A DNA stretch of 64,000 bases from Candidatus Omnitrophota bacterium (lineage in GTDB: Bacteria > Omnitrophota > Gorgyraeia > Zapsychrales > Zapsychraceae): the NCBI GenBank assembly GCA_020053475.1, contig JAGVNC010000084.1, positions 4,201 to 68,200 on the forward strand. The letters run 5' to 3'. A program made the position numbers and the translations under genes. Shown one piece after another: positions 18,710-46,141 of this stretch; the first letter of the stretch is position 1, and every line of letters starts with the position of its first letter. The notes under the pieces were generated by a model that was not told the origin of the DNA, ran no database searches, and worked only from the letters and a program-made list of their open reading frames with translations.

Positions 18710-19492
18710 TTATTTGTTGAAAACATCTCGTACCGTCGAAAGAAGCATCTTGGGATCAACGGGTTTTGTTAAATGGGCGATCGCCCCCATCGCGATTTCA
18801 GCATTAATATCGTCTGGCGAATCTTTGGCCGTCAAAAAAATGATGGGAATATGTTTTGTTTGGCTATTCTGCTTTAAATTTTTGCACACATCTCTCCCCT
18901 TAATCCCCGGTAAAATAACGTCCAGAATAATCAGATCCGGCAATTGCGATGTCGCCACCTGAATCCCATCTTCCCCGGATTCAGCTGTTAACACAGAATA
19001 ACCGCTTGAAATAAGAATAGGCCGCACAGTCTTTAAAAGCATTGCATCATCGTCAACAATTAAAATAGATTGCCGTTTCTGTTGTTCCATGCGCCCTCCC
19101 TGCCCCGCCTTGGCGGGGATTGTAAAAAAGATAACGCCTAATGTTATTCCTGTCGACAGCAACGCAGGGATCAAATCGACAAAGCTTGGTGTATTCTCTG
19201 AAGCAATCACATTCCCTACCCAAGCGATGGTCAAAATCCATGTTAATACGCTAGAGGCATACTGCAACACCGTCCCCAGCTTCTTTCCTAAAATAGAAAA
19301 GATGGCTGCTAAAAAATGAGCCCCGGCAATCACGGCCAGATAAAGGATCAACGTCGATGGATAACTCACGCTGGAGATTTGTTGTTCGGCATACGCACTA
19401 ATGATCACAGGCAGGGTAAAAAGCAAAACGCGGGCAGAAACAATCATTTGCACCCACAATAAAATCATTCGGCTGATCAATTTCTTCTCCAT
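18710..19492 (-). CDS. membrane-anchored receiver-domain protein (4 TM helices fused to a CheY-like REC domain; no output domain)
   Basis: C-terminal MEQQKRQSILIVDDD...LILDVILPG...FLTAKD is a canonical REC domain. The N-terminal 125 aa are four hydrophobic helices. A hairpin-plus-SD module sits exactly before the internal Met. Confidence 0.6.
   Translation of the reverse strand: MEKKLISRMILLWVQMIVSARVLLFTLPVIISAYAEQQISSVSYPSTLILYLAVIAGAHFLAAIFSILGKKLGTVLQYASSVLTWILTIAWVGNVIASENTPSFVDLIPALLSTGITLGVIFFTIPAKAGQGGRMEQQKRQSILIVDDDAMLLKTVRPILISSGYSVLTAESGEDGIQVATSQLPDLIILDVILPGIKGRDVCKNLKQNSQTKHIPIIFLTAKDSPDDINAEIAMGAIAHLTKPVDPKMLLSTVRDVFNK
19094..19118 (-). promoter_or_regulatory. Family-C hairpin-plus-SD module (CCCCGCCAAGGCGGGG-CA-GGGAGG) 4 nt upstream of the internal ATG at 19090
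   Basis: Seen directly. Same composite at 19500-19523 and 44552-44576, each time followed by ATG after 4-8 nt. Confidence 0.4.
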
Positions 19493-19499
19493 GCGGCAG

Positions 19500-19523
19500 C
19501 TCCCTGCCCCGCCCTGGCGGGGC
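19500..19523 (-). promoter_or_regulatory. Family-C hairpin-plus-SD module upstream of the receiver-protein start codon (19492)
   Basis: Minus strand reads GCCCCGCCAGGGCGGGGCAGGGAGCTGCCGC-ATG. Confidence 0.4.
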
Positions 19524-19564
19524 TTTTACTGAGTTGAGACTACATTATAGTAAAATTTAATCAG

Positions 19565-21154
19565 TTAACAAATCGAATTTTTTGTTCTTTTCCAAGACGT
19601 GAAGAACCCCCCTAAAATACAGAGAAAACATAGATAGATAAAAATATCCCCAAATGCCGTATAGAGGCTTTGGGAAGAATTCAACACCACATCTTCTTTT
19701 TTAAAGCCGGCCACATACGTCATTTTCCCTTGATTGTTTTGAACCCCGCTCGTCAGTCTTCCATACGGATCAATAAAAACACTGACGCCGGTATTGGCAG
19801 AACGGACAAAACTTCGGCGGTTTTCAACGCTCCGGAACACCGTCGACTGCACATGCATCCACGGCGCATTGGAATCCTTAAACCATCCGTCATTGGTGAT
19901 GTTCACTAAAAATTGAGCCCCCTTCTGAGTCAAGCGGCGGGAAAGTTCGGGGACCGCATCTTCAAAACAAATCAAAATCCCCATCACATAAGGGCTCCCC
20001 TGGGTCGATTTGACGGGATCTAGCGATAACGTGTTCAATTCAGCCCCACGGGTAAAATCATCTACCGGGATAATATTTTGCAGAGGCTTAGGGATGCCCC
20101 ATCGGCCCGGCAGATATTCTCCAAAAGGGACCAAATGCACCTTATCATAACGCTGCATGGTTTTCGCGTCGCTTAAAAAAAGAATCGCCGAATTATAATA
20201 TTGGCCCCCTTTTTGTGTCACAGAACCGAAAACAATAGGGATTTTGACCTTTTGCATCATCTGTTTAACCTTCATGAGCAAATTTAAATCCTGCGGCAAA
20301 AATCCCGGGAATGACGTTTCCGGCCAAATCATCAACATCGGCTTTTCTTGGGCCGCTGTTTTAGTCAACGCAATATGTTGATCCAAATTGTCTTCCCAGG
20401 ATTCCGGGCGCCATTTTGATTCCTGAGAAATGTTTGGCTGGATTGTTGTCACGCTGATAATCGGGTTAACGGACCGATCAGACAAACGATAAAATCCATA
20501 CATCAAGACCAGCCCAACAGCAATAACTGTAATCAACAAGCTCTTGAGCAATTCCCGATAAAAAACATTGTCCCGGCGCAAAATCTTCTGGACAATCTCC
20601 TTGAACACATAATTGACCATCACAATCAAAAAAGAGACTCCATACATCCCCGTCACATCGGCAACTTGAATCAACGCTAAATTCTGATATTGGGCATACG
20701 CCAACGATCCCCAATTAAATCCCGTTAAAAAATGTCCGCGAATAAATTCTAATGTCACCCATAAGCTGGGAATCATCATCAATTTGAACGAAATGGACCG
20801 ATGGCCCACCAACGCATAGGACAAACCGAATAAACCAAAATACAAAGACAAATAAAGGATGAATAAGACGACAGCAACGCCGGCCAAGAAAGAAAACCAT
20901 GTGGTCAGATGAAATAACCAATAAAAAACAATCGAACAGAACACAATCCCAAAAACGTATCCCGCTCCGAAAGCCTGGCGCAATGATCGTTCTTCCAAAA
21001 CCCAAAATAGAGGGGCAAGGCCGACCCATGTCAAAATCCACAATCGGGGGGAAAAAAACGGCAGGGCCATCAAGAGAGCCGAAGCGAAGATAAGGATAAT
21101 ATCCCTTCGTCTAAATCCATATCGATTCACGGCGTTTTTGATCGACAACAACAT
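19565..21154 (-). CDS. lnt: apolipoprotein N-acyltransferase
   Basis: Polytopic N-terminus plus C-terminal CN-hydrolase domain (VVFGSVTQ...YDKVHLVPFGEYLP); 529 aa. Confidence 0.8.
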   Translation of the reverse strand: MLLSIKNAVNRYGFRRRDIILIFASALLMALPFFSPRLWILTWVGLAPLFWVLEERSLRQAFGAGYVFGIVFCSIVFYWLFHLTTWFSFLAGVAVVLFILYLSLYFGLFGLSYALVGHRSISFKLMMIPSLWVTLEFIRGHFLTGFNWGSLAYAQYQNLALIQVADVTGMYGVSFLIVMVNYVFKEIVQKILRRDNVFYRELLKSLLITVIAVGLVLMYGFYRLSDRSVNPIISVTTIQPNISQESKWRPESWEDNLDQHIALTKTAAQEKPMLMIWPETSFPGFLPQDLNLLMKVKQMMQKVKIPIVFGSVTQKGGQYYNSAILFLSDAKTMQRYDKVHLVPFGEYLPGRWGIPKPLQNIIPVDDFTRGAELNTLSLDPVKSTQGSPYVMGILICFEDAVPELSRRLTQKGAQFLVNITNDGWFKDSNAPWMHVQSTVFRSVENRRSFVRSANTGVSVFIDPYGRLTSGVQNNQGKMTYVAGFKKEDVVLNSSQSLYTAFGDIFIYLCFLCILGGFFTSWKRTKNSIC

Positions 21155-21155
21155 T

Positions 21156-21713
21156 TTATTGAAAGGCCTCTTTAACCCGCGGGCGGGTAAAATAGAACAT
21201 AAGGGTTAAGGAAAAGACAATATCCAACCCTGTATAAAAAGCAAATGAGATCACCGGGAATAAAGGGAATTTTAACAAAGATGTCCCAATCTGTTCAGGA
21301 AACACTGGGTAAGAATTTTGATCAAATGTCGTGCCGGGGGGGAACATCGTCATGAAAAACTGTTGTTCCTGGAGAAGAGCGATATTTTGAAAAATAAAAA
21401 AAGGGTGTTTCCAGTAAAGGCCGATAAGCGACAAGGCGCACATCACCAATAGGGACTTGCGCGCAACTTCTAAATGCTTTAATAATCCGACAGCGATCGC
21501 GATCGCCATTAATCTCCAGAAGATGGAGATGGCGTAACGGAAAGGAATGATCGCGGCGGGCAATTGCTGAAACATAAATTGATAGTAAGGATAGTTCAAC
21601 AGGCCCAGCAACTTATATGCAGCCGCGAAGATCAGTAACGAGGCGAAAATGGTTATTCCTGAAAGTTTTTTCTTTTCTTCGATGGATGTTGGCCGTATCA
21701 TCGACCGCAACAT
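21156..21713 (-). CDS. membrane protein of unknown function, translationally coupled to secA (ATGA at 21698-21701)
   Basis: About 5 TM helices. Alternative ATG at 21701 overlaps the secA TGA. Confidence 0.4.
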   Translation of the reverse strand: MLRSMIRPTSIEEKKKLSGITIFASLLIFAAAYKLLGLLNYPYYQFMFQQLPAAIIPFRYAISIFWRLMAIAIAVGLLKHLEVARKSLLVMCALSLIGLYWKHPFFIFQNIALLQEQQFFMTMFPPGTTFDQNSYPVFPEQIGTSLLKFPLFPVISFAFYTGLDIVFSLTLMFYFTRPRVKEAFQ

Positions 21714-24697: not shown

Positions 24698-24735
24698 ATC
24701 CTAAATCCCCCGTGCCGTCCCGGCAGGGACGGTGC

Positions 24736-24842
24736 AAAACTCTAAACTCTAAATAAATACAAAACTCAAAATCTAAAATATTTTGATCATTTGAATTTTG
24801 GGTTTACTTTGGATTTAGGATTTTGAGTTTAGAGTTTTATTT
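24736..24842. repeat. Family-A intergenic hairpin repeat, copy 4 (prfB / secA spacer)
   Basis: aaaactctaaactctaaataaatacaaaactcaaaatctaaaatatttt / gatcatttgaattttgggtttactttggatttaggattttgagtttagagtttt. Confidence 0.6.
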
Positions 24843-24850
24843 TAACGTTT

Positions 24851-25952: not shown

Positions 25953-25969
25953 TGGTTACAGGTTGCCCC

Positions 25970-26003
25970 TTCGTCAACCCATTCGACTTCGCTCCGTGTC
26001 AAC
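25970..26003. repeat. Family-E half-copy (gtcaacccattcgacttcgctc cgtgtcaac) upstream of prfB
   Basis: Matches the reverse complement of the right half of the 13897-14012 element, with a 6-nt deletion. Confidence 0.35.
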
Positions 26004-26063
26004 AAAAAGTTCATTATAACACAAGCCTTCATTCTCTCAATCAATAACAACTTTACAGCACTG

Positions 26064-27143: not shown

Positions 27144-27225
27144 GGCGTTGATCCTTTCAGGGGTTCAAAAGAGAATTATTCTAACACGATTTTTTCATCT
27201 TCCCAAGAGTTTCTCTCTCGACCGT

Positions 27226-27277
27226 GTTTTAGGGTTTAAGGTTTAAGGTTTAAGGTTTAAGGTTTAAGATTTAGGGG
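27226..27277. repeat. tandem heptamer array (GGTTTAA) x5 flanked by TTTAGGG-like units
   Basis: ttttagggtttaaggtttaaggtttaaggtttaaggtttaagatttagggg, read directly. Confidence 0.85.
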
Positions 27278-27575: not shown

Positions 27576-27603
27576 CTTCGCCTCCAAACCTTTGCCCCTG
27601 TTC

Positions 27604-30581: not shown

Positions 30582-30660
30582 CTGAAAACCTATTTGTTAA
30601 TATTAATCCTCTTTTGGAATCGGAATCGACAATCGTTATTCATTAAAGGAGTTTTAGGCT

Positions 30661-31549: not shown

Positions 31550-31616
31550 AACTAAAGTTACATGTCACAAGTAAAAGCATTTTCTTGTGATTTGTGTCGT
31601 GTGTCTTGTGACTCCT

Positions 31617-33103: not shown

Positions 33104-33258
33104 TCCGCAAATTTAGCACACTCTCTTGGCTTTGTCAAATCCATAAAAAAGCTCCTATCCTCTTGCCATAGAATATTTAAGTTTAATTTACCCCACTTTA
33201 TTATGCGATCATCCCTGATCAATTAAATTTTCAGCCCCGGCTACCTACAACTGTAGAT

Positions 33259-33513
33259 CTACTCGACACGCTCGCAAGAAACCAAATCCCCACTCTCCCA
33301 TGGAGACAGGGGAGTGCCCTCCCCCAACTCTAACTTTTTTGCGGCCATATGAAACTCTTTTGTAGCCTTACAACGAGCTTCGGCTTCATTAGCGGCTTCC
33401 ACTTCATATATCCCTTTGTAACTGCTAGATCTCCAGTGAGGGGATTGTTCATCTATAGATTCTCCTTTTGCGAATTGCTGGAAGCGTTCCGAATATGCCA
33501 GCCTACCAATCAT
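33259..33513 (-). CDS. hypothetical small protein downstream of the giant gene (GC-shifted)
   Basis: 84-aa ORF in the GC-rich block; no recognisable motif. Confidence 0.2.
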   Translation of the reverse strand: MIGRLAYSERFQQFAKGESIDEQSPHWRSSSYKGIYEVEAANEAEARCKATKEFHMAAKKLELGEGTPLSPWESGDLVSCERVE

Positions 33514-33693
33514 TAGGTGTTACCATTCGGAACGCCTCCGAATTTCCCTCCGGATTTCCCAACCTCTCCCACAGGCACGGAACAGATCAGGTGAAGCAAC
33601 GTGGTGTCATCCAAGGGTTTGAAACAGATGGTAGTCTGCGGAACGCGAAACGGCTCATGGTTCTCAAGGTTAAAGGCGTTTCTGTTGCTTTCG

Positions 33694-36600
33694 TCACAGT
33701 CTGGTTTTCGTTGGGATGGGGGGGGACTTAGGCGTGATGGTGCTGGGTGTGACGGTGATGGGTGTGTCATGGGTATAATAGGGGGAAGCGGCTCCCACCG
33801 TATCGATGGCTCGGCAGCGGAGAAGCGCCTGGGCTTTCTCTGACAGGGTGTTCAAATTCCACACGACCGCCTCCCCTGCAGAATGCGTGCCAATGAGATT
33901 CCAGTCTCCTCCGTACACCTCGTACACCTCCTCCCCGATCTCGATGGCAGGAGGAACCGCAGCGGCCAGTGCGCGCTCAAATGCAGGAGCCGGCGTATCG
34001 AGTTGGAAGGTAGGGAAATCTTCGAGGAACAAGGTCAAGGTCTCTCCTGGCAACATGGTGATTGCCGTACTATTCGTTAAGGCATAGTTACAACTGCTCG
34101 CCGGGCCGCTCAGGCAGAACCCTTTCGCGGTGTGATCGAGCTTCGCCGCGGTATCTGGGCCGGGAAGAAAGAGGAGGGCTTCTCCGGTTGTCGAACTCCA
34201 ATACCCGCTCAACGGCGGCCATCCGACCTGCATCGTCGCGAAGCCTGGGATGAGAACAGAAGCGAGGGTTCCATCCATCGACGTGGAGATCCACGTATCG
34301 AAGGAAGGATTGTAGTAACGCGTGTCAAAGAAGCGTACTTCATTGAGCGTAATGGGCGGACCGGTCCGGATGATGCGCAGGAGCGGGCTCTTGGCATTCG
34401 ACCATGCGTGGATCTCGGCCGCCCATCCTGTCCCTTGCTTGGCCACGGCACGCCAGAACGCATAGGTGGCGCTACTCTCTTGGAGCGTGAAGTCGAAAGT
34501 ATGCCATCCGTCTGCGTAGAAGGAGAGCGCCACCGCTGGGCCAGCCGCCCCTGGATACGCAGTATTGAAGACATAGCCCGTGGGATACTGATGGTTGCAC
34601 GTGACTCGTCCAATCGAAGCTGAGAGTTCACAATTAAGACTGATGTCCGTCTGCGGAGCCCAGGACAGATAATTATCATTGGCGATGATGGATCCTGGGT
34701 ACGTTGGCAATGAAGCACCGCTGTTACCATAATAAATAGCATAGTTGGTTTTGCCTTGAATATCTGCAAGAAACGTGATGGTTCCCTGGAGAAGACTGGC
34801 ATAACTGGGCACTTCATTTCCACCCTGGCCACAGGGCGCATCGATGACGCGTATGGCATTGGCCTGACCACCAAACATCGATAAATCCAGGAACACCGGC
34901 GTGGCAGGCCGTGGAATCGGCTGAGGAAGTGGATCGGTGAATGTCACGGTTCGACACGACTGCCATGTCCCTAACGACGCCTCGACGTCATACATCAGCA
35001 AGTCACCTGGAGAATCGGAAGACCCGGAGCAGGCGAGCGCAACCGATTCAAAAAACGTGCCCTTGCAGACGGCACCATTGCAAGAGAGCGACGTGGGAAT
35101 CGTCGGGGGGGTGTTGAGCGTAAAGGTCACCGACGTGAAAGCGGGATGGCCCACCGCATCGTTGGCGAACAGGGTCAGCGAATGGGGGCCGGCAGTGACT
35201 TGCAGGGTGGTCGGCGCACAGGACGGCAGGGCCTGCGGCGGACTCTCGTCGAGCGTGTACCAACATGACGCGACCCCACTGAACGCATCCGTCACGGTAT
35301 AGCTGAGGGGAATCGGGAGCGCGGCATACGTGATGTCCTTTGGCGACTCCAAGGTGATGGCCGGCGGTGTGATATCGAGCGCGATGCTCGCGACCTGGAT
35401 GGTTTCGCTATTGTTCACGATGTCCTGGGAGTGGAATCTGAGGTAGTTCGTCCCCTCTGTCGAGATGAAAAACGGCGCAGAATACGTTAGGAACGGGACA
35501 CACGAATTGTTTTGATCAAGACAATAGAGAGTCGTCGCGCACCCGGCGCCCCCGGCATCGGTACACGTCAACGTCACCAGCGCATCCGTACTCTGCCAGC
35601 CTTGGGGCACGCTGGCGGAAGTCACGGGCGGCAGGTTATCAATGGTAAAGGCCACGGTGGTTGCGGTTTCATGCCCCAGGACATCGCTCGCCCCAATCGT
35701 CAGGTTATGGGGGCCGGGGGAGAGTTGTTGAAGGATGGTGTGCTCACACGCCGGGAGCGTCTGCGCCATGCCGTCATCCAGCGTGTACCAACAACTCTGG
35801 ATGCCACTCAATGCATCGGCCGCTTCGTAGACCACTGGAAGATCAGCCAGCGGGTAGACACTGTTGTTGGTGGGGGACTCGATGACAAGTGACGGGGGTG
35901 TTTTATCGAGCAAGACAATGTGCGACTGGATGGTTTCCAGATTACCGGCGTTATCTTTGGCTTGGATGCGGAGATAATGTGTTCCCTCATTGGAAATCAG
36001 CACGGGGGCTTGATACGGCGTCAGAGGAAGACAGGCATTCTCTTGATCGACGCAATAGTCTATCGTCGCGCACCCGGCACCCCCACTATCGGTACACGTC
36101 AAGGTCACCAGCGCATCCATACTCTGCCAACCTTGGGGAAAGACGCCGGAGGTCACGGGAGGAAGATTATCAATCGTCAGCGTGCCGGATGACACAAGCG
36201 GTTGGCTCTGCTGTCCTTCCGCAGACGCCACACAACGCAAATGCACATTCTCTATTGCATCAAATGCCGACGTATCCCAGAGCACGGAACCGCCAGCCGG
36301 GTGCGTACCGATCGGCGTCCAGGCCTTGAAGGTCGGCACGAGGGGCGCGACAAAGCGATCATACGCTTCCACACTTTGTGGCCCCATCGCCTGCTCCAAC
36401 GAGCCGGTCGTGAAGATCAGCCGCCAGGGATGGATGGTGCCAGACGGGAACGGCTGCACCGACAGCGGATACCAGGTGCCGCCAAAGCTCGGTTGGCCGC
36501 CATTGTTACTGACCCCCAGGGGGTGCGGCAGTTGCGAGGCATAGGTCATCGCGAGCACTTGTTCCAGAGAAAGATTAGATTCGGATTTCGAGATCGCCAC

Positions 36601-39600
36601 GCGCGTCCGCTCCTGGTCGCCAAAGGTAAGCACCGGCGCACTGGCCGAGGCCGTGTAGACACTGGGATTGCTGCCGTAACTGTAAGAGAACGGCGTGGGG
36701 CCGGTTGAGCCGCCGGTGTAGAAGGCCACCGTATCCCCCCACGCCGTGCCTCCATTAAAGGAGGAGCGTACATCAATCCAGGGGCTGCCACGGTAGAATC
36801 GGAACGCCTGCCACGCGAGCCCTCCGGGCTTGGCGCAAGTGACCTCCACGACGACTGGTCCACTGGCCGTCACCGAACAGGCGGCATCGGTGACGGTGCG
36901 ATCAAAGATGGCGGTGCCAGGCCCTGTCCATGTGGTATTGGTCAACATGCCCAGCGACCCATCCGAATCCGGAGCGTTTTCATAATCCCACCCGATGAGC
37001 CCTTGCGTGAGGGAAAACGGTTTGTACACGAGTTCGTGGATGACGCCGCCGGCATGGTCTAGCCAAGCTTTCACCACCGCATTTTCGATGGTACAGTCTG
37101 CGCTGACACAATCGCCGGTGTGCACCAGATCGGAACTGTACGTCGGGGCGCCTTGATCGGTGGTGGCGTAGTAGATCCCGTACGCCACCGGCGTGCCAGC
37201 GGGACGCGTGGCCAGGAAGACCAGGCGGGTGCTCTGATACGTCGTGCCGACCAGCGTCGACTCATACGTTTGCGAAGGAATTTCTTGGCCGCCGGCGCCA
37301 CAGGCCGCATCGACGACCCGTAAGGAATCTTTGAAGGGCGCCTCGGTCCAGACCGAGGCATCCAACATGAGGTCCACCGGTTCCGACTCATAGGCCAGGG
37401 GGGAGGCCGTATCTAATGTCACTGTGAAACACTTCGGAAACGCCGGATTCCACCAGCCGGGTTGTTGCACATCTTGTTCATCTTCATGCCATTCTTCGGC
37501 GGTATACACGAGCGGGTCCTGCTGTGCGTCCGTGGCGCCGCTGCAAACCACATCGATGGTCCCGGAAAACAGCCCGGTGCAATTGCCGTCATTACACTGC
37601 ATCGCGGTCGGCGGTGTCGGGGGGGTGTTCTGTTGGCACGCCAACGTACAGTCTTGCGTGCCGGCCATCACGCCTTCACAGGCAGGGTCAGCTGTACAAC
37701 CCGCAGCATACAGCGACGACCGACAGATCGGCGCGTTGTCTTCTCCGGTACAGATGGCGGAACACGTATCGCTAAAGTAGGTCTTCCCGACGGCGCATCC
37801 CGGAAGATCGCTGCCAGGAAACACCTGATCGCAGGACGCATCCGCACCGCACGCTGCGGCACAAATTTCCGCCACATCATCTCCGCTACCTCCCTGCCAG
37901 TCGCATTGGAAGATTGCAAGCGATGAGCACGCGTCCTGTTCTTTTTCATCACAGTATTGCGGAGCCCCACAGGTGCTCTCGGCCGACAGGACACAATCCG
38001 TACCGGTCACTTCGCAGGCCCGTTCGTTGAACGAGCCGCCGTGTTCACACGCATCTTCATGCGGCGTGGTTTCATCGCACGACGGGGGAGCCCCGAATGC
38101 CTCTTCGCAACTGCCGCCACCGCTACACGTCATCGTGGTGCCAGCACATTGCAGTGACGATTCGAGTTCGCCATTGCGGCAGGCTTCCCCATACGTGTTG
38201 CACGACCCATCCGAGCATGTCTGTCCTGTCGGAGATGCCTCCACGCAATTGCCACCATTGACAGAGCACGCGGCTCCGCAACAGAATCCATTTTTCGCAG
38301 GAACCCCAAGACCGCAGTCGCCGTCGTTGCAATCCACAAATCCATCACAATCATTGTCAACACCGTCGTTGCACAGTTCTGCTTGGAGACAGGAGACGCA
38401 CACGTTACTCAGCGGATTGCTGTCTGGTTTCTTGCAGTAATTGCCCGGGCCGCAGTCCGCGTCCGCCCCGCAGTTCAGCACCAGATAGTTCTCACTATGC
38501 TCGCCAACGTCGAACTGGCCGTTCTCGTTCGTGTCCCAGTACTCCCACAGCTTGCCCCCGTAGAACCCGTACCCGTAGGGATTCCCGGCCGGGTAATTGG
38601 AGAGGCACAGGATGTCGGGGAAGCCGATCTCGTTCACGGGGCCCGTGTACGTCTTCGTGACCGTCACCGCGTTCTCGACCTTCTCGTCGCAGTCCCCGTC
38701 GTAGCAGCCGTAGGACATGGTCTGGGCGAAGTTCACCATGTCGCTCACGAGGTAGCCTGATTTCACCTCGCAGCGGAACCACACCTTGTACGTGTCGCCT
38801 GCGAGCATGTAGTGCTCCAGATAGCCGTCGTTGTCCACGTCCGCATGCTTCCACTGGTAATTGTTCGCGCAGTACGGGCCGTACTTTATGGTGTCGACGT
38901 ACCCGGAGTATGGCGGCTCGTTTACGACGATCGTCCAGTTGTAGCATTCGTTCTCATCGCCGCCGCAGATGTTCTCGTCGGTCTGCCCGTCGCAGTTGTT
39001 ATCCACACCGTCGTGCGGACACACTTCCGTTGTTGGACCCTGCCCTCCGGTGCACGGGCCCCACTGGCCGCTTACGCATGTCTGCGTGCCGAAGGAGCAT
39101 GCTCCTACATCTGTTCCACAGGGCTTGGTCTGACCGTTCACACAACTGCACCCTTCATCCGTGATCCCGTCACAATTATCATCGATGCCGTTGCAGAGTT
39201 CCTGCGCGCCGGGGGTGCCGGTGCTGCAGCTGGATTTGCATTGGGACGTCGTCGGATTGCACCCGTAGGCGCAGTCTTGGACCAATGTTTCCTGAAGAAT
39301 CGTGTCCTGAAGGGCGCAAATACCTTCCATTGGAATGGTCGAGCTGCAGCCATACTGGTACTGGGTGGTGAGCACATAGACATCGTCATTTTTGCAGTAC
39401 GGTGATGAGGAAAAACTGTAGTTTTGCGCTTCACACACTGTTTCGCAAGGATAATAGCCGCATGGGTTCAGTTGGCATGCCAGCCATCCTCCACTGATTT
39501 CACCGATTGCAAGAGCAGAGCAAAAGCCACAATTCAGGAGATCAAAGAACACTTTTAATCCGATCCCTTCTAACAGCATCGTCCCGTAAATCTTAAACGC

Positions 39601-40608
39601 CTTGGCTTTGTTAAGAAGGTCCGGAATCTGCTTGACGAGTTCGCCCAGATCTGCGGCATTTTGAATGAGGCTGGCCGCATCATAAATGTCGGTCCCTTGC
39701 CCACACTTCCCTAAGATGTTTTGCTCGACGAAATCGCTTAGTGTTTGAGAAAAATCTGCAGCCGTGTCGTAATCAACCACCGCGTTGAGTTGATATTGAA
39801 AATTTTGTAACCCATTCAAAATATCCTGTTTACTTTCGCAGACTGTCAGTGCGGCATCTTGCACTAATCCAGTCATATCTCCGAGTAAATACGTAATCGT
39901 ATGCACGGCAGGATTATAGGAAGGATCGGCTTGACCGTTGAACCACTGCGTAAGTGAGATGAACAGATCATACAGTTCATTCGATCCGGCGCCGCACGCA
40001 AAGGAGCAGGGATTGTGGCTATTAAACCAGTCAACGAAATAGCCAAAACACACCGCGCTATTGCAGTCCACTTGGCTTTTCTGGGTGCCAGCATCGGGCG
40101 GGGGGGTAACAACCCGTCGGCTTTTGATGTCCACATCAACTCGTCCCTGTGGTGAATACAATCGCAACAGCAGCGTGCCCTTGTCATCTTTGACCACATC
40201 ACACAAGGCGACCCCTGAGGTGCCTTGCGCCTTATTGTGATGCTGGATCAGATACATGCCGGAGAGTTGTTCTGAAAAGAAGAGCGCGACCGTCATGGTT
40301 GCTTCTGGCGTGTCGAGCTGCACCGCGCGTTGGGTAGGGCGGAATCCTAACTCTTGGGCATAGCGATAGGCATCGCGAACTTGCGGATCTTCGCGAAGGA
40401 ACGTCGTCACTTCATCTGCCGTGAGATGACGAACTGTTGCACCAGAGAGTGTCTGTGATGGAAAGGCCGTGGTGCCGCGGGGTGCCGGTTCTGTGTCAGA
40501 AGCCGCGAGTCGAGGAGAGGCCATAAGAAAAATGGCCACGACGAGCGTCACTGCGAGACACCGTGTTGAGGTAGGACATCGTGCTCCAGCTTGACAAATG
40601 GGGAGCAT
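33694..40608 (-). CDS. giant secreted cysteine-rich repeat protein (2304 aa). It has tandem chitobiase-C/Ig-like modules plus MopE-type C-x-DG-x-DNDCDG repeats
   Basis: Uninterrupted 6.9 kb ORF with ATG at 40608 and an N-terminal signal peptide. Two or more tandem ~190-aa repeats (NLPPVTS..QGWQS.DALVTLTCTD.GGAGCAT..YC.DQ.N.C.P...Y.AP..IS.EGT.YLR). Repeated ELCNDGVDNDCDG / CNGIDDNCDGITDEGC / HDGVDNNCDGQTDEN motifs and dense Cys. GC and third-position GC are markedly higher than neighbouring genes. Confidence 0.8.
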   Translation of the reverse strand: MLPICQAGARCPTSTRCLAVTLVVAIFLMASPRLAASDTEPAPRGTTAFPSQTLSGATVRHLTADEVTTFLREDPQVRDAYRYAQELGFRPTQRAVQLDTPEATMTVALFFSEQLSGMYLIQHHNKAQGTSGVALCDVVKDDKGTLLLRLYSPQGRVDVDIKSRRVVTPPPDAGTQKSQVDCNSAVCFGYFVDWFNSHNPCSFACGAGSNELYDLFISLTQWFNGQADPSYNPAVHTITYLLGDMTGLVQDAALTVCESKQDILNGLQNFQYQLNAVVDYDTAADFSQTLSDFVEQNILGKCGQGTDIYDAASLIQNAADLGELVKQIPDLLNKAKAFKIYGTMLLEGIGLKVFFDLLNCGFCSALAIGEISGGWLACQLNPCGYYPCETVCEAQNYSFSSSPYCKNDDVYVLTTQYQYGCSSTIPMEGICALQDTILQETLVQDCAYGCNPTTSQCKSSCSTGTPGAQELCNGIDDNCDGITDEGCSCVNGQTKPCGTDVGACSFGTQTCVSGQWGPCTGGQGPTTEVCPHDGVDNNCDGQTDENICGGDENECYNWTIVVNEPPYSGYVDTIKYGPYCANNYQWKHADVDNDGYLEHYMLAGDTYKVWFRCEVKSGYLVSDMVNFAQTMSYGCYDGDCDEKVENAVTVTKTYTGPVNEIGFPDILCLSNYPAGNPYGYGFYGGKLWEYWDTNENGQFDVGEHSENYLVLNCGADADCGPGNYCKKPDSNPLSNVCVSCLQAELCNDGVDNDCDGFVDCNDGDCGLGVPAKNGFCCGAACSVNGGNCVEASPTGQTCSDGSCNTYGEACRNGELESSLQCAGTTMTCSGGGSCEEAFGAPPSCDETTPHEDACEHGGSFNERACEVTGTDCVLSAESTCGAPQYCDEKEQDACSSLAIFQCDWQGGSGDDVAEICAAACGADASCDQVFPGSDLPGCAVGKTYFSDTCSAICTGEDNAPICRSSLYAAGCTADPACEGVMAGTQDCTLACQQNTPPTPPTAMQCNDGNCTGLFSGTIDVVCSGATDAQQDPLVYTAEEWHEDEQDVQQPGWWNPAFPKCFTVTLDTASPLAYESEPVDLMLDASVWTEAPFKDSLRVVDAACGAGGQEIPSQTYESTLVGTTYQSTRLVFLATRPAGTPVAYGIYYATTDQGAPTYSSDLVHTGDCVSADCTIENAVVKAWLDHAGGVIHELVYKPFSLTQGLIGWDYENAPDSDGSLGMLTNTTWTGPGTAIFDRTVTDAACSVTASGPVVVEVTCAKPGGLAWQAFRFYRGSPWIDVRSSFNGGTAWGDTVAFYTGGSTGPTPFSYSYGSNPSVYTASASAPVLTFGDQERTRVAISKSESNLSLEQVLAMTYASQLPHPLGVSNNGGQPSFGGTWYPLSVQPFPSGTIHPWRLIFTTGSLEQAMGPQSVEAYDRFVAPLVPTFKAWTPIGTHPAGGSVLWDTSAFDAIENVHLRCVASAEGQQSQPLVSSGTLTIDNLPPVTSGVFPQGWQSMDALVTLTCTDSGGAGCATIDYCVDQENACLPLTPYQAPVLISNEGTHYLRIQAKDNAGNLETIQSHIVLLDKTPPSLVIESPTNNSVYPLADLPVVYEAADALSGIQSCWYTLDDGMAQTLPACEHTILQQLSPGPHNLTIGASDVLGHETATTVAFTIDNLPPVTSASVPQGWQSTDALVTLTCTDAGGAGCATTLYCLDQNNSCVPFLTYSAPFFISTEGTNYLRFHSQDIVNNSETIQVASIALDITPPAITLESPKDITYAALPIPLSYTVTDAFSGVASCWYTLDESPPQALPSCAPTTLQVTAGPHSLTLFANDAVGHPAFTSVTFTLNTPPTIPTSLSCNGAVCKGTFFESVALACSGSSDSPGDLLMYDVEASLGTWQSCRTVTFTDPLPQPIPRPATPVFLDLSMFGGQANAIRVIDAPCGQGGNEVPSYASLLQGTITFLADIQGKTNYAIYYGNSGASLPTYPGSIIANDNYLSWAPQTDISLNCELSASIGRVTCNHQYPTGYVFNTAYPGAAGPAVALSFYADGWHTFDFTLQESSATYAFWRAVAKQGTGWAAEIHAWSNAKSPLLRIIRTGPPITLNEVRFFDTRYYNPSFDTWISTSMDGTLASVLIPGFATMQVGWPPLSGYWSSTTGEALLFLPGPDTAAKLDHTAKGFCLSGPASSCNYALTNSTAITMLPGETLTLFLEDFPTFQLDTPAPAFERALAAAVPPAIEIGEEVYEVYGGDWNLIGTHSAGEAVVWNLNTLSEKAQALLRCRAIDTVGAASPYYTHDTPITVTPSTITPKSPPIPTKTRL

Positions 40609-40740
40609 TACAACGCCTCTAAATCTTTGGGGTTAATCCGCCACTTCCCAATCTTAGTAGCGCGGATGTGTTTTTCCCGAATAAGTTTACGAACTCTGTA
40701 TTCAGTTAACCCAATCTGTTTAGCAACCTGCTCTCTACAG
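40609..40740 (-). pseudogene. start-less excisionase/HTH_17-like DNA-binding ORF abutting the giant gene (TAATG stop/start overlap)
   Basis: Minus-strand translation between an in-frame TAG and TAA reads GIFNCREQVAKQIGLTEYRVRKLIREKHIRATKIGKWRINPKDLEAL. This has the Xis/MerR-type helix-turn-helix-wing pattern. There is no ATG/GTG/TTG in frame. Confidence 0.4.
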
Positions 40741-40970
40741 TTAAATATCCCCTAAGCAATATAATATAGCCTTTATTTTAGATTGTTTAACATGATTTCA
40801 CATCATACCACATTTAAAATTTTATTAACAATCAATTCTTCCCTGGCATCATGGAATGGTTTTTCTTTATTTCCTATCTACTCAATCCATTCCGGCTTAA
40901 TTTTCCAATCGCCTGTTGGGAAAACTTTTTCCGTTGTCAACCATATCATTTGGGGATCCTTTCGACAGCG

Positions 40971-41489
40971 CTATAGCCCTACTTTCAACCCATACATCTT
41001 AATCAATTCCAGAAAGGCTTCGGCGTTGCCCTTGGCGTCGTCAACCGGATTGTGTGTGTGCTTGGTTTTGCGTAAATGCTTAAAATTTTTGGAGGTATCC
41101 CTTACCAACCCTTTATAAAGCGAACCTAAATTCATCGATGAATGGCCAAAAGGGTTCTTGCCAAGAAAATGATGGAAATACCAATTAATAAACTGCCAGT
41201 CAAAACCATTATTGTCGGATATGAATATCGGCCGCCCTTTTATATTGTCAGCCAGCCATTTATCGAAAGATTCCATGACAGTTTTGGAGTTGTCGAAGTT
41301 CAATGTTTCTTCCCGGCTGAATCCCGAAACCTTTAATGCCTCCGGCTCCCATTTTCCCGAAATCGGTTTTAACTTTTTATAGAAAGTCCTTGATAGCGAC
41401 GGCTCAACAATAATTGCTCCAAAGCAAACCATCGAATAATCGCCCGGGATAGGGCCGTCGGCTTCAATATCGACAATGACGTAGCTCAT
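40971..41489 (-). CDS. stand-alone DEDDh 3-prime-5-prime exonuclease (DnaQ-like fold)
   Basis: Exo I VIVDIEADG, Exo II FISDNNGFDWQF, Exo III HTHNPVDDAKGNAEAF; 172 aa. Confidence 0.65.
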   Translation of the reverse strand: MSYVIVDIEADGPIPGDYSMVCFGAIIVEPSLSRTFYKKLKPISGKWEPEALKVSGFSREETLNFDNSKTVMESFDKWLADNIKGRPIFISDNNGFDWQFINWYFHHFLGKNPFGHSSMNLGSLYKGLVRDTSKNFKHLRKTKHTHNPVDDAKGNAEAFLELIKMYGLKVGL

Positions 41490-41595
41490 AATATCTCAGT
41501 TCAAGTTATGTAAGTTTCTTGTAGCCGTTACCATACATAAAAATGCACGAATGTTACAGAAAATGGAATGTTCATGCGTTGAAGGCTGTGTTTCC

Positions 41596-42534
41596 TTATC
41601 CCCACGGTCCCGGGGCTTTCCATTCGCCTGGTATGTTGGCTTTATCGTTGATGGCCAATATGACCGGCTCAAGAAACTCGTTTATTTTCTGCATGATCGC
41701 GGGAAAATGATCGGTGATCTTTTTTTCCCTGATTTTGCGCAGGTAGGCCTGCCATTGTTTCTGCCTGTTTTTATCTTCGAAAAACTCCCCCGTAAAAACC
41801 ACCGGATTTTCCGGCAATGGTGTTTCGCGCCTTGAAAACGCAGCCTGCACGGCCTTAAAGAGAACTTTCCCGGTGAAATTATCGGAAAGAGCAAGGGAAT
41901 AAATATCGTAGAAATCCTTCATGCGGCTGTTCACGAAACTTAATTTGATCATGGCCTCGAACTTTTCCGCGATCATGCTTTCCAGCGAGTAGACCTTTAA
42001 CCGGGGATGCCGGTCCTCCAGGATAGTCGGGAAATCCATCTCAAGCGGTTGAGGAACAATGTCGTCTCCGAAGCCCACATCGATTTGTAATATTTTTCGC
42101 GCCTTTCCTAGAGTTGCCTTGATTTTCAGCCTTATGCCATGATACTCTGCTCCTTCTTTTATGTCTTCTGAATGTACGGATCCGGGATCAAAGATTATCC
42201 CGTCAGCGTATTCAATGCGGGCGATGTCCTGAATGATCGCTTCCAGGCCACGGTGTGAATTCTTAATGCGCTGCGCCAGGAAATCAATGTCGATGGTGGG
42301 CCGTGAATGAGGAACGTCATGACAGACCAGCAGAAGCCCTCCTTTGAGCACAAAAGAGCCGGAATGCTTGCTGACAGACAGACGGTATAAAAACCTCTCC
42401 TGCATGTAGCGTAATAAAAGGGCATCAAAGTCGATGCCCTGGGATCTGGCCAGATTCAATAATTTTGCCTTTATGGAGGCCGGTTTATTTTTGATGTTTT
42501 CTATCATCGTTGTTAAATCATGGCGTTCAGCCAC
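41596..42534 (-). CDS. AbiEii/AbiGii-family nucleotidyltransferase toxin (type IV TA)
   Basis: FLYRLS...FVLKGGLLLVCHDVPHSRPTIDIDFL GG-NTase motif; 312 aa. Paralogous to the partial gene at 1-931. Confidence 0.7.
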   Translation of the reverse strand: MAERHDLTTMIENIKNKPASIKAKLLNLARSQGIDFDALLLRYMQERFLYRLSVSKHSGSFVLKGGLLLVCHDVPHSRPTIDIDFLAQRIKNSHRGLEAIIQDIARIEYADGIIFDPGSVHSEDIKEGAEYHGIRLKIKATLGKARKILQIDVGFGDDIVPQPLEMDFPTILEDRHPRLKVYSLESMIAEKFEAMIKLSFVNSRMKDFYDIYSLALSDNFTGKVLFKAVQAAFSRRETPLPENPVVFTGEFFEDKNRQKQWQAYLRKIREKKITDHFPAIMQKINEFLEPVILAINDKANIPGEWKAPGPWG

Positions 42535-43118
42535 GTCTGAAGCACCGGTTTGACGCGGCAGACGGCGGCAAGTTCCAGGAGTTTTTCAATATTGCGGTTC
42601 TTCCGTTTCAGGTATTCCGTCAGGGCCTCTTTGGCCGTGTCCACTCCAAGTTTGTTTCGATAGCGAAAGCAGTCGCAGATCGTTTTCTCCGGAGAATAAA
42701 TCCTGATCTTCTGATTTTTGACCATGATGGTCTCTACACCGGCATGAAACTGTTTTTCGGAAAAATAGTAGAATTCAACCGGCGGGTATTTAATTTTGGG
42801 ACGCCAGGCTTTCCGATGAATGGCCACAGAAACAACCGAAGGATTGAACGTTGTCAGCTGGTAATAGGAAAGCGCGGAAAGCAGGCAAATAACCCCTTCC
42901 GGAACGGCCTGTGCAATGTCAATAAAACTTTGGTGAGAAACAACAGAAACTTCACTCAGTCTGTAAAGTCCAGTTTTGACTTTATTGATAATCCCTTCGT
43001 CAACCATGGCTCGGATATCTCGCGGGTGCACTCCTTTGGCAAGAAGTTCGCCTGTTCGCGCGTAGCCTTTATGGGCATTGAATATTTGTCGGATTTTCTG
43101 ATATTTCTGATTTGTCAT
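42513..43118 (-). CDS. AbiEi-family antitoxin
   Basis: 201 aa, immediately upstream of and overlapping AbiEii by 22 nt. N-terminal wHTH-like region. Confidence 0.6.
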   Translation of the reverse strand: MTNQKYQKIRQIFNAHKGYARTGELLAKGVHPRDIRAMVDEGIINKVKTGLYRLSEVSVVSHQSFIDIAQAVPEGVICLLSALSYYQLTTFNPSVVSVAIHRKAWRPKIKYPPVEFYYFSEKQFHAGVETIMVKNQKIRIYSPEKTICDCFRYRNKLGVDTAKEALTEYLKRKNRNIEKLLELAAVCRVKPVLQTWLNAMI

Positions 43119-43221
43119 GACATTTTTATATGGATAAACTAATAGGCGGATTATAACATATGCCTATGAAACTATCCAGTGTAAATTTTTGTTTGGGGCC
43201 CGATAACGCAACCCTCTCTCT

Positions 43222-44547
43222 TTACTTAACCTCCCAAAGGTGTTTGCGGGTTTCTTCCACAACAACCCCGCTTAAGACAAGCAAGGAGATCAAATTGGGA
43301 ATGGCCATGCAGGCATTGGTAATATCCGCCAACGACCAGACAATCGGCAATGACAAAACCGATCCGGCCATGACCGCCCCCACCCAAAGATAGCGGTAAG
43401 GCTTAATGGCTTTGCTGCCAAAGAGATATTCACAGGCCTTTTCGCCGTAATACGACCATCCCAAAATCGTGGCAATCACAAACGTAAAAAGGCTCACGCT
43501 TAAGACAATAGGCCCGATGACAGGGATGTCATCAAACGCCGCTTTGGCCAAACCAGCCCCATTTAAGCCTAATGTCCAGGCCCCGGAATTCACATACACC
43601 AAACCTGTCAGGGCACACATGACGACCGTGTCCCAAAACGTCCCCGTCGATGAAACGAGCGCTTGACGCACAGGGTTTTTGGTCTGGGCCGCTGCCGCCA
43701 CAATCGCGCCACTTCCCATCCCTGATTCGTTGGAGAAAAGTCCACGGGCGACACCATAACGGACGGCTTCCTTCATCGTGGCCCCCAAAAATCCGCCGAT
43801 CGCGGCCTGGCCCGTAAAAGCGCTTTGAAAAATCAACACAATGGCTTGGGGAAGCGTATCAAATTTTAAAACCAAGAGAATCAGGCATCCTAAAATATTA
43901 AAGATGGCCATGAAAGGAACCAGCGTTTCACACGCTCGGGAAATCGATTTGATGCCTCCCAAAATCACAGCGCCCGTTAACACCATGATGACTAGGCCCG
44001 TGATCCAATGGGGGATATGAAACGTTTCATACACTAGCACAGCCGCCGAATTGGCTTGGACCATATTGCCGATGCCGATGGCTGTGATGGCCGTAAAAAC
44101 CGCAAACAAAACACCCAGCCATTTGCAATTCATCCCCTTCTCCAACACGTACATGGGGCCCCCGGCCATGGCTCCATCCTTGGTCTTTACGCGATATTTC
44201 GATGATAATAAAGCTTCGGCGTATTTCGTCGAGATGCCAAACACGCCTGTAATCCATAACCAAAAAATGGCACCCGGCCCGCCGGAAGCCACCGCAGTGG
44301 CCACACCGACAATATTCCCTGCGCCAATCGTCGCCGCCAACGCCGTCGTCAATGCCCCGAATTGGCTGACATCCCCTTCCCCTTCTTTGGATCGTTCGAA
44401 GGAAATCTTAATGGCCTTGCCGATGTAACGTTGAATAAATCTTAAACGAAATGTTAAAAAAAGATGTGTCCCGCATAAAATCGCCAACGTCCAGGGTCCC
44501 CAAACCCAATTGCTTAGTTCCCCTAGAAATTTTTCCAACTCATGCAT
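43222..44547 (-). CDS. alanine/glycine:cation symporter (AGCS family)
   Basis: ATG at 44547 is preceded by GGGAGG. MHELEKFLGELSNWVWGPWTLAILCGTHLFLTFRL is the family N-terminus. The ORF track's longer frame (to 44634) reads through the upstream hairpin module. Confidence 0.8.
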   Translation of the reverse strand: MHELEKFLGELSNWVWGPWTLAILCGTHLFLTFRLRFIQRYIGKAIKISFERSKEGEGDVSQFGALTTALAATIGAGNIVGVATAVASGGPGAIFWLWITGVFGISTKYAEALLSSKYRVKTKDGAMAGGPMYVLEKGMNCKWLGVLFAVFTAITAIGIGNMVQANSAAVLVYETFHIPHWITGLVIMVLTGAVILGGIKSISRACETLVPFMAIFNILGCLILLVLKFDTLPQAIVLIFQSAFTGQAAIGGFLGATMKEAVRYGVARGLFSNESGMGSGAIVAAAAQTKNPVRQALVSSTGTFWDTVVMCALTGLVYVNSGAWTLGLNGAGLAKAAFDDIPVIGPIVLSVSLFTFVIATILGWSYYGEKACEYLFGSKAIKPYRYLWVGAVMAGSVLSLPIVWSLADITNACMAIPNLISLLVLSGVVVEETRKHLWEVK

Positions 44548-46141
44548 AGGGCCTCCCTGTCCCGCCAAGGCGGGACTTAAATGATCCGTCATTGATCTTA
44601 AAAATGGATGCAGGTTTATTATACCAAGAGCCAAAAAATCTTTTGAGGAATAATATCAAAATTAATAGCCCTGTCCCACCCAGATAATAAATGACCACTT
44701 GCCAAAAATTGACACTCTTAATCAAGAAGTAGGCCCCGGGGAGTTGATCCATCAAATAGATGCTGGCGACAACCACGTTTAACAGTAATTTGAGGCAAAG
44801 GGCAAACATCTGAGCACAATATCCCGAGATAAAGGCGAACGCTAACAGTCCTAATCCTAACGCCACGACCGCACTCATCAGAGGAATCACAATTAAATTG
44901 GCCACAAAAATGATGGGAGTAACGATTTGAAAATAATAGGCAATGAATCCCGCTAACCCTAACCACACGGATAAAGAAATGCCCAAGGCATTGATCAGCC
45001 ATTTGGCATATTGACTGGAAAAGGAAGACGCAATCAATTCGAGCCGGGGCCCTACTAAAATAATAATCAGAACAGCCAAAAAAGATAACTGAAACCCAAT
45101 ATCAAACAAATGAAAAGGATTGATCAATAATAACAGCAGTCCGGCTAATCCTAATGTATTGAACGAATCCGTTGGCCTCTCTAGCAGAAACCCCAAGAGA
45201 AAAACAATGATCATGATTGTCGCCCGTACCACCGAAGGCGGCGATCCTGTTAAGACACAATAAACAATCAATAATCCAATGGCCAGCCAAAGCTGTGTTT
45301 TGCGGCCGATCGGGAATATTTTGAGAATCAACAGGAATAATCCCGCGACAATGCCGACATTAAATCCGCTGATGGCCAAGACATGCACGGTCCCTGTATG
45401 TTCAAACAAGTCCATAATATGCGTCGGGATGGCCGCCCTGTCTCCCAAAATCATCGCACTCATCAAGCCCGCCTCGGCAGGAGACAGATATTGGTCAAAA
45501 ACGCTTGTCAGATGATCCCTCCAGCGAAAAATAGCGGCCAGCCATTGATATTGATATCCCGTTTTCAAAATTTCGACCGACGCTTGGCGCCCGACGCTTA
45601 AAATCCAATAGACGCCCTTCATTTCCAAATAATCCGTGTAGGAAAAATTCCCATCGGAGAAATTATACGGGCGGTGCAACTTGCCTTCGATACGCAAAAG
45701 GTCACCGCAGTGAATCTCTTTGTCCTGAAACACATTGACCAACACTTTTCCGCTCTTTGGGCGCCAGCCCCAGGGCGTTTTAATTTCTTCAACCTGCAGC
45801 GTAAACACTTTTTTCTTCTTGTTAAAAAAAGACCGTGTTTCGACGTCCGTGGCCACCGTGCCTTTGAGCGTTGTTAATTTTCCTGAATAATATCGCGCCA
45901 CGTGATGAATATGGTCTCGCGGGAGAACCTCAACATTTTGTGCATAAAGAAAACTCACGCCGATCAAGGCTGCGCCCAGGCAAACATTCCAACAAATGGG
46001 CCGATGCCGGCCCAACATGGCAACGAAAAGAAACAAACAGCTTAACGCCACGACGCCGGAGAATGAGGCAGAAATGTAACGATGACAAATAATCCCAATC
46101 GCCCAAAACATAAAAATTCCGACAAAAGGCCGTTGGGTCAT
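44540..46141 (-). CDS. comEC: ComEC/Rec2-family DNA internalisation channel (competence domain only, no metallo-beta-lactamase domain)
   Basis: DUF4131-like N-terminus, then the competence domain with HVLAISGFNVGIV; 533 aa. ATGA overlap with comEA. Confidence 0.75.
   Translation of the reverse strand: MTQRPFVGIFMFWAIGIICHRYISASFSGVVALSCLFLFVAMLGRHRPICWNVCLGAALIGVSFLYAQNVEVLPRDHIHHVARYYSGKLTTLKGTVATDVETRSFFNKKKKVFTLQVEEIKTPWGWRPKSGKVLVNVFQDKEIHCGDLLRIEGKLHRPYNFSDGNFSYTDYLEMKGVYWILSVGRQASVEILKTGYQYQWLAAIFRWRDHLTSVFDQYLSPAEAGLMSAMILGDRAAIPTHIMDLFEHTGTVHVLAISGFNVGIVAGLFLLILKIFPIGRKTQLWLAIGLLIVYCVLTGSPPSVVRATIMIIVFLLGFLLERPTDSFNTLGLAGLLLLLINPFHLFDIGFQLSFLAVLIIILVGPRLELIASSFSSQYAKWLINALGISLSVWLGLAGFIAYYFQIVTPIIFVANLIVIPLMSAVVALGLGLLAFAFISGYCAQMFALCLKLLLNVVVASIYLMDQLPGAYFLIKSVNFWQVVIYYLGGTGLLILILFLKRFFGSWYNKPASIFKINDGSFKSRLGGTGRPYA
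44552..44576 (-). promoter_or_regulatory. Family-C hairpin-plus-SD module upstream of the AGCS symporter start
   Basis: Minus strand reads GTCCCGCCTTGGCGGGACAGGGAGGCCCT-ATG. Confidence 0.4.

Follow-up and report, generated by a model that had tools for sequence, protein, structure and literature searches.

Small repeats that settle beside or within bacterial genes are known in several forms. REPs are short (20-40 bp), GC-rich palindromes with GTAG or CGTC tags; they are occasionally intragenic, and are thought to be mobilised as single-strand hairpins with an unpaired foot tag (PMC3733652). MIRUs are small repeats at start codons in operons, where the downstream gene stays translated and orthologous sites can be found empty or filled (PMC12548453; PMC3184786). 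The Neisseria REP2 and Borrelia IR repeats, 120-150 bp long, lie immediately upstream of open reading frames (ORFs) and supply them with a promoter, a ribosome-binding site (RBS) and an ATG (PMC3184786), and RPEs (Rickettsia palindromic elements) are palindromic repeats tolerated in frame within protein genes (cited in PMC3184786). At the RNA level, the 5′ stem-loops of ompA and papA, the B. subtilis aprE leader and STAB-SD combine a 5′ stem-loop with a strong Shine-Dalgarno (SD) sequence, which guards the mRNA from 5′-end-dependent decay (PMC3997798). Here we describe a short GC-rich hairpin that directly precedes the SD sequence at three sites in 64,000 nt of DNA from a Candidatus Omnitrophota bacterium (assembly GCA_020053475.1, contig JAGVNC010000084.1, positions 4,201 to 68,200; this whole stretch is called the window). 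The three sites are probably copies of a short interspersed palindromic repeat of one Omnitrophota lineage that resides inside SD sequences.

The module CCCGCC-NN-GGCGGG-N-CAGGGAG occurs three times in the window, always on the minus strand, the one that also codes for the genes involved (Table 1). The original prediction had placed this composite ahead of start codons three times, and all three sites were present, with 5 nt (site 1), 7 nt (site 2) or 5 nt (site 3) between the module and the ATG. The pattern CCCGCCNNGGCGGG gave exactly three matches in 64 kb where shuffled sequences led us to expect 0.01, and the 22-nt composite CCCGCCNNGGCGGGNCAGGGAG, with up to three mismatches allowed, returned exactly the same three matches (0.01 expected from shuffles). 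Together with the high-GC genome control described below, the shuffles rule out a chance origin of the window copies. A covariance model run with filters off found no further or degenerate copy in the 64 kb; the window copies are all-or-nothing, and perfect. Nor did any other stem occur in the same arrangement of hairpin, SD and ATG, either in the window or in 30 kb of element-free relatives.

Table 1. The three hairpin-SD modules, the genes that carry or follow them, and a nearby promoter match (window coordinates).
Feature	Position	Strand	Description	Covariance model (bits)	Folding energy (kcal/mol)
Site 1	module 19096-19123; ATG 19090-19088	minus	tCCCCGCCAAGGCGGGGCAGGGAGggcgcATG; within the 260-aa ORF; 5′ flank ACAAT; 6-7 bp stem and tetraloop 19103-19118; CAGGGAG 19102-19096; spacer GGCGC	42.2	-12.9
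Site 2	module 19500-19527; ATG 19492-19490	minus	aGCCCCGCCAGGGCGGGGCAGGGAGctgccgcATG; Lnt / 4TM-REC intergenic spacer; 5′ flank AAAAG; 7-bp stem and tetraloop 19506-19523; CAGGGAG 19506-19500; spacer CTGCCGC	46.9	-16
Site 3	module 44553-44580; ATG 44547-44545	minus	gTCCCGCCTTGGCGGGACAGGGAGgccctATG; directly before the AGCS start; 5′ flank TTAAG; 7-bp stem and tetraloop 44559-44576; CAGGGAG 44559-44553; spacer GCCCT	45.3	-13.9
Membrane-REC fusion gene	18710..19492	minus	260 aa; Pfam Response_reg residues 143-254		
Candidate internal cistron	18710..19090	minus	126-aa stand-alone REC from Met135 (MEQQKRQSILIVDDD...); module and 5-nt spacing like other starts		
AGCS sodium:alanine symporter gene	43222..44547	minus	Pfam Na_Ala_symp		
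ComEC gene	44540..46141	minus	last 13 codons (...KSRLGGTGRPYA, then stop) read through the site 3 module		
Sigma-70-like promoter match	19544..19571	minus	TTGTTA-16-TATAAT, 10/12; consensus match only		

Site 2 falls in the gap that separates the stop of Lnt (19565) from the first codon of the 260-aa ORF, which encodes a membrane domain fused to a receiver (REC) domain, and the -10 box of the promoter match ends 20 nt upstream of its hairpin. Site 3, whose second stem pair is U-A instead of the C-G of the other two sites, precedes the gene for an AGCS symporter. The AGCS start that follows the module is the conserved N-terminus, as orthologues begin MEGLEKL, MENVENF or MEALEKF at the same position; in the NCBI annotation of a 97.5%-identical metagenome-assembled genome (MAG), AGCS starts MHELEKF. 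The ComEC stop and the AGCS start overlap by 8 nt (ATGCATGA, window 44540-44547), which suits translational coupling besides the SD of the module. Close relatives carry the same sites. Sites 1 and 2 are both carried by L070, an independent Logan contig that is 99% identical over Lnt / 4TM-REC and in which site 1 is unchanged, and site 3 is identical in a contig of GCA_030648475.1 (L088) that is 97.5% identical over ComEA-ComEC-AGCS. Exact-protein look-ups of the window proteins returned no match.

When one genome of each GTDB species was scanned for the exact pattern, 69 loci were found, most of them in genomes above 54% GC, where they look like chance. Fifteen loci were in low-GC MAGs (12 in CAYING01, one in CAZCLW01 and two in Omnitrophica WOR_2 MAGs), and a metagenome scan gave nine further low-GC instances. 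Viral contigs scanned with the pattern gave 0 matches, and a phage origin was rejected on that basis. After deduplication there were 25 distinct copies: the three in the window and 22 outside it, from related MAGs of low GC and from metagenome contigs. Every one of the 25 is a single copy in the orientation of the gene downstream, and an ATG comes 5-12 nt after it; this opens an ORF of at least 75 codons in 21, the remaining four running off the contig. For comparison, an ATG stood 3-12 nt downstream in 8 of 51 high-GC matches, which is the chance level, versus 15 of 15 matches in Omnitrophota-like MAGs. The original prediction suggested that the module is portable and asked for enrichment upstream of starts; both were supported, with the module standing before unrelated genes in several related genomes. 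The related sequence consists of 2-14 kb fragments chosen for holding the pattern, which sample copy number per genome and copies lacking an SD poorly.

The genes downstream of the copies are unrelated to one another. They encode DnaK, SSB, RecA, ACP, cyclophilin (PPIase), IDH/IPMDH, an RmlA-like protein, AdoMet decarboxylase, a NarH-like subunit and AbrB-like proteins, and in one ribosomal-protein operon copies precede L16, L18 and L15. The L15 copy is contained in the 3′ end of the S5 gene, and the S5 product ends ...SPATAGQGV. Pfam domains were matched in seven of the ten downstream ORFs submitted, and in four of these (Iso_dh, Pro_isomerase, SSB and NTP_transferase) the domain begins at residues 1-4; a fifth, AGCS, opens with its conserved N-terminus. 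In CAYING01, a covariance model also found nested or duplicated copies and variants in loop length, all just before an ATG. Two nested or duplicated hairpins (L030 5378-5427; L022 790-834), in which one copy apparently lies inside the loop or arm of another, are each followed by AGGGAG and, 5-6 nt on, by ATG. Also in CAYING01, thiS (L042 6735-6880, minus strand) and L18 (L045 6790-6925, plus strand) have in common a nearly identical upstream block of ~115 nt; the block holds a hairpin variant with a 3-nt loop, together with TCCCAATT/AATTGGGA repeats in inverted orientation, and stops precisely at ATGAAAA. CAYING01 (loci L001, L019, L022 and others) was deposited as 'uncultured Planctomycetales', a label that is probably wrong, because its L042 locus shows synteny with window 52-56 kb, the amino-acid identity being 70-86%.

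No gene kept the hairpin across the relatives compared. AGCS orthologues of 80-87% identity have a plain AAGGAGG or AAGGAGA and no hairpin, and one of 78% identity starts with GTG after AAAGGA (upstream sequences AAGGAGGggatATG, AAGGAGAacgcATG or AAGGAGAatctATG); the 30 kb around these orthologues held no hairpin copy anywhere. With five orthologous loci lacking the hairpin, a regulatory element conserved with AGCS is ruled out. The reverse was true for thiS and AdoMet decarboxylase, which have ordinary SDs in the window and carry the hairpin in their CAYING01 orthologues (L042). Since the -10-like box 'tagtataaagg' upstream of these genes is conserved, the hairpin there lies in the transcribed 5′ untranslated region (UTR).

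The clearest empty and filled pair was provided by loci L066 and L082, where flanks of 93% and 90% identity enclose an indel of 20-22 nt within the SD. The empty site in L082 reads CCGGCGAAGGAGGGCA (in context, ccggCGAAGGAGGGcaagATG) and the filled site in L066 reads ccggTACAAG[CCCCGCCGTGGCGGGGCAGG]GAGCggtaaaATG, so that AAG^GAGG becomes AAG[CCCCGCCnnGGCGGGGCAGG]GAG. At a NarH-like gene, L066 has TAAGGAGG (context TAAGGAGGaacaccATG), and L082 has a duplicated segment of ~385 nt, with the hairpin at its end, whose junction falls within that SD. A gene of ~111 aa is duplicated in L082 (3860-4140 and 8817-9152), and only the second copy, before the NarH-like gene, ends in the hairpin; the first has a plain SD, and its L066 orthologue has the hairpin. 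An apparent recombination breakpoint at the module between L066 and L082 was explained instead by this duplicated small gene. From these alignments, the module is best described as AAG^GAGG split by a palindrome of 20-22 nt whose 3′ end, ...CAGG, restores AGGGAG(G). A palindrome that splits AAG^GAGG would account for the conserved 5′ AAG, the constant SD and the constant distance to the ATG. Because the hairpin is an indel in a pre-existing SD, a repeat element is a likelier explanation than a dedicated regulatory cassette.

The aligned copies share the consensus wAAG-C-CCCGCC-NN-GGCGGG-G-C-AGGGAG, which comprises a 7-bp stem, a 4-nt loop and then a strong SD, or an 18-nt palindromic core inside a conserved unit of 26-28 nt. 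The inner six stem pairs and CAGGGAG were fixed by our search pattern; the AAG of the 5′ flank was conserved though the pattern did not demand it. Over 18 copies, 96% of stem cells were paired, and the loop took nine different dinucleotides among the 25 copies. The isolated module was predicted to fold at -13 to -16 kcal/mol, leaving the SD single-stranded outside the stem, and partition-function folding of 24 natural contexts gave the hairpin a probability of 0.93-1.0.

These folds bear on the original prediction's suggestion of a riboregulator, in which the hairpin would act as a thermometer or switch that alternately occludes and presents the SD. The hairpin and the SD do adjoin, and in minimum-free-energy folds of the window sites the SD is touched by weak, context-specific pairings (with an upstream UCUUU at site 1, and GGG/CCC at site 3). 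However, SD-sequestering riboregulators and RNA thermometers pair the SD within the hairpin, whereas here the perfect palindrome is self-contained and AGGGAG lies outside the stem. In the natural contexts, the six SD bases had a mean unpaired probability of 0.53, versus 0.59 when the 5′ arm was mutated in silico, and the direction of the change was inconsistent; destroying the arm had no systematic effect on SD pairing. Moreover, the variable flanks hold no conserved alternative pairing partner, and no Rfam family was matched. Predicted folding largely refutes the switch, to which we assign a very low probability.

An operator that acts without hiding the SD deserves more weight, although we still consider it unlikely. 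Here, a trans-acting protein or RNA would bind the hairpin beside the SD and control the translation of a gene set, and selection would maintain the site. Phage coat-protein and ribosomal-protein operators are examples of such translational hairpins. The strongly conserved stem, its fixed juxtaposition to the SD and its fixed orientation would all be expected, and several targets are abundant housekeeping genes (DnaK, SSB, RecA, ACP, L15, L16 and L18). Yet most hairpin-binding proteins read loop bases, and this loop is unconstrained. The gene set is functionally incoherent, the element is kept at no gene across relatives, and nested and duplicated copies suit a repeat better.

About half of the copies have -10-like boxes 11-47 nt upstream and the rest have none; therefore, the hairpin is sometimes 5′-proximal and sometimes intercistronic, and no fixed distance from a promoter was found. 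An inverted repeat that is perfect around a free 2-bp centre is typical of dimer sites, and -10-like boxes precede some copies by 11-30 bp, as might be expected if a dimeric transcription factor bound the 16-bp palindrome and regulated the genes downstream. The variable distance to the boxes and their absence from about half of the copies argue against such an operator, as do the many copies that are intercistronic or inside upstream ORFs (S5/L15, ComEC/AGCS and the REC linker). Orientation and spacing follow the SD and the ATG rather than promoters, making a DNA-level operator very improbable.

The unit has no T outside its loop and is almost always open in the three forward frames (in the cases seen, it was read through without a stop as PAKAGQGG, KSRLGGTGRPYA and APPWRGRER), so that the 3′ end of an upstream gene can extend across it. 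In another reading, the hairpin would serve the upstream transcript as an intercistronic processing site or terminator-like hairpin, its adjacency to the SD being incidental. Several copies are at gene junctions, a stable GC hairpin at a 3′ end shields the mRNA upstream of it, as in the case of REPs, and a weak terminator-like site was flagged on the opposite strand of site 2. On the coding strand, however, the hairpin is followed by AGGGAG and not by the U-tract of an intrinsic terminator. Many copies lie downstream of promoter-like boxes without an upstream co-directional gene, and the spacing is constant with respect to the ATG that follows but not to the stop that precedes. We judge this role improbable, if less so than the DNA-level operator. 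None of the four alternatives accounts for the block-wise presence and absence of the unit inside the SDs of unrelated genes.

Compared with the repeats described above, the element resembles REPs in being a short, GC-rich, dispersed palindrome (25 distinct copies here) that is transcribed with its neighbours and occasionally lies inside genes. It differs in lacking GTAG or CGTC on either strand, its flanks being wAAG (5′) and CAGGGAG (3′), and in its placement, since most REPs lie downstream of a gene, can face either way and often form inverted pairs, whereas these copies are single, co-oriented and 5-12 nt before an ATG. With MIRUs it shares a position at start codons and orthologous sites both empty and filled. 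MIRUs, however, are 40-100 bp direct repeats, often in tandem, with a small ORF coupled at -4 nt; the 20-28 nt hairpin unit has no ORF and no internal start or stop, and acts by a rebuilt SD. Like the Neisseria REP2 and Borrelia IR repeats, it brings an RBS just ahead of ORFs, but its common unit of ~20-28 nt supplies the SD-restoring end only, while the spacer, the ATG context and the distance to a -10 box vary; one relative does have a 115-nt block, ATG included, common to two genes. Finally, residence in frame in the REC linker (site 1) and in the C-terminal extensions of ComEC and S5 recalls RPEs, which in contrast are 100-150 bp long, add a folded peptide segment, and are not associated with an RBS or an internal start.

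Other comparisons were less close. There is no array as would be seen for a CRISPR repeat (the three copies are 0.4 and 25 kb apart), and the Rfam match to CRISPR-DR10 had E = 2.9, far below the gathering score; Rfam found nothing significant at the sites, and only three tRNAs in the window passed. By analogy with the ompA-type leaders, 5′ mRNA stabilisation would be the most likely RNA-level benefit of the hairpin. Those leaders belong to single genes and not to a repeat family, and their stem-loop lies a few nt from the 5′ end of the transcript; here, a -10-like box stands 11-47 nt upstream of only about half of the copies, and about half are intercistronic. Our literature searches found no description of an SD-linked hairpin repeat of this kind in Omnitrophota.

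We propose that the hairpin is a short interspersed repeat of this Omnitrophota lineage, an explanation we consider probable though well short of established. A unit of ~20-22 nt, CCCCGCC-NN-GGCGGGGCAGG, would split a canonical AAGGAGG after its AAG and before its GAGG, and its own 3′ end (...CAGG) would rebuild a strong SD, AGGGAG(G), as far from the start codon as is normal. Once transcribed, the unit is predicted to fold into a 7-bp tetraloop hairpin that abuts the SD without including it. Translation of the downstream gene would continue from the rebuilt SD, and the insertion would be tolerated or mildly useful, possibly as a barrier to 5′-end-dependent decay or as an insulator that keeps upstream RNA off the SD. 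As to how it spreads, an indel without target duplication and a short conserved 5′ tag recall REP/RAYT and IS200/IS605; our best guess is a hairpin-recognising single-strand DNA mechanism that would insert and excise the unit without duplications, as in those systems, and the copying of larger 5′ blocks appears to occur as well.

Several observations weigh against this proposal or limit it. Only one empty and filled pair is anchored on both flanks, and because the bases beside the L066/L082 indel differ, its boundaries are uncertain by about 2 nt and gain and loss fit alike; the direction was assigned by parsimony for AGCS and the REC linker only. The invariance of the inner six pairs and of CAGGGAG is no independent evidence, as the search fixed them, and covariation is thin, with two compensated changes (C-G to U-A) versus two uncompensated ones at a single pair. 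The perfect association with start codons could stem from selection alone and not from target choice. A mobilising enzyme, such as a Y1 (HUH) transposase of the RAYT type, was not found by tblastn, a weak test that ran an IS608 TnpA query against about 290 kb of sequence with no complete genome among it. Finally, a 20-nt unit alone would break the reading frame at site 1, which needs an extra event or a larger copied block. A bolder version of the proposal, which we regard as doubtful, is that the unit is an active miniature mobile element that targets the SD (AAG^GAGG), moves seamlessly in and out, always leaves a working RBS, and also enters coding sequence to make internal starts, so that the membrane-REC gene would be a gene fission in progress, its single ORF yielding a receiver domain in tethered as well as free form.

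Site 1 is the copy that lies within a gene, where it is translated as PAKAGQGGRM in the 260-aa ORF. An assembly artefact of this ORF is ruled out, as the same ORF is found in an independent 99%-identical contig. The original prediction held that the Met after site 1 begins the REC domain and follows a domain of four transmembrane segments. The first part stood: the Met is residue 135, eight residues ahead of the Pfam REC match, which is a normal N-terminus for a CheY-like protein. The second was less secure, with only three segments passing a Kyte-Doolittle threshold of 1.6 and a weaker fourth, which leaves four segments plausible but uncertain. Membrane-REC proteins of 240-260 aa with the same architecture are common in Omnitrophota, which makes the fusion ancestral. 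When 20 full-length homologues were aligned, 5-7 extra residues exactly at AKAGQGG set the window protein and a 98%-identical relative apart, and Met135 occurs in none of the 20; judged from this alignment, the hairpin copy in the REC linker is a lineage-specific addition.

By our own estimate, chance alone would place an in-frame ATG at the spacing of an SD in about 5% of cases. After the module, CGCATGGA is common to sites 1 and 2, and the product of each begins ME, which hints at an intragenic copy that took in a start codon. By analogy with the 24 other copies, which precede ORF starts (verified with Pfam for seven), independent translation of the REC domain from Met135 is plausible. The internal copy, with the lineage-specific ATG 5 nt on, would then probably direct a second initiation, giving a free 126-aa REC protein beside the full-length membrane-REC protein. 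A stand-alone REC gene next to AGCS in L071 was considered as an orthologue of the window REC and rejected, the identity being 34%.

A few further features were seen in passing. A second hairpin, GCCTGCC-N4-GGCAGGC, occurs at window 12701-12721 and 52661-52680, at L045 3827-3854 and at about 3430-3450 in L067. Like the main module, it has AGGG(AG) on its 3′ side, and it lies away from start codons (at 12701, between the 3′ end of a gene and a tRNA); possibly, it is related to the SD-embedded family and has diverged from it. In L003, L006, L048, L077 and L078 (Nitrospirota and Deltaproteobacteria MAGs or contigs), the whole module is part of a longer perfect palindrome, CTCCCTGnAGTCCCGCCnnGGCGGGACAGGGAG, in which CAGGGAG is the outer stem arm and not an SD, and no ATG follows. 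The match at L016 4777-4798 (a Candidatus Falkowbacteria MAG) stands between stretches that resemble the 5′ half of a tRNA (GGGCTTATAGCTCAACTGGTTA... and ...GGGTAATTAGCTCAGTTGG), a context unrelated to the Omnitrophota family. In the window itself, 33139-43233 and 46669-49523 are absent from the otherwise collinear, 97.5%-identical L088 and look like strain-variable islands. The first holds a toxin-antitoxin pair (AbiEi/AbiEii), an exonuclease resembling RNase_T and, at 33694-40608, an ORF of 2304 aa that matches MopE and bacterial Ig; the GC content of this ORF is 55-60%, compared with about 46% elsewhere.

Descriptions of small palindromic repeats usually place them downstream of genes, and treat them as terminator-like or as junk. 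If our proposal is correct, a family that occupies and rebuilds RBSs would illustrate how selfish DNA colonises the most constrained intergenic bases without cost, and would amount to ready-made translation starts that can be moved around a genome. The hairpin would also be an easy marker of true start codons in poorly annotated genomes of uncultured bacteria, and the hairpin-plus-SD unit a naturally tested, compact 5′ UTR part. In the membrane-REC gene, the internal copy would be a concrete case of one ORF that may give rise to two signalling proteins.

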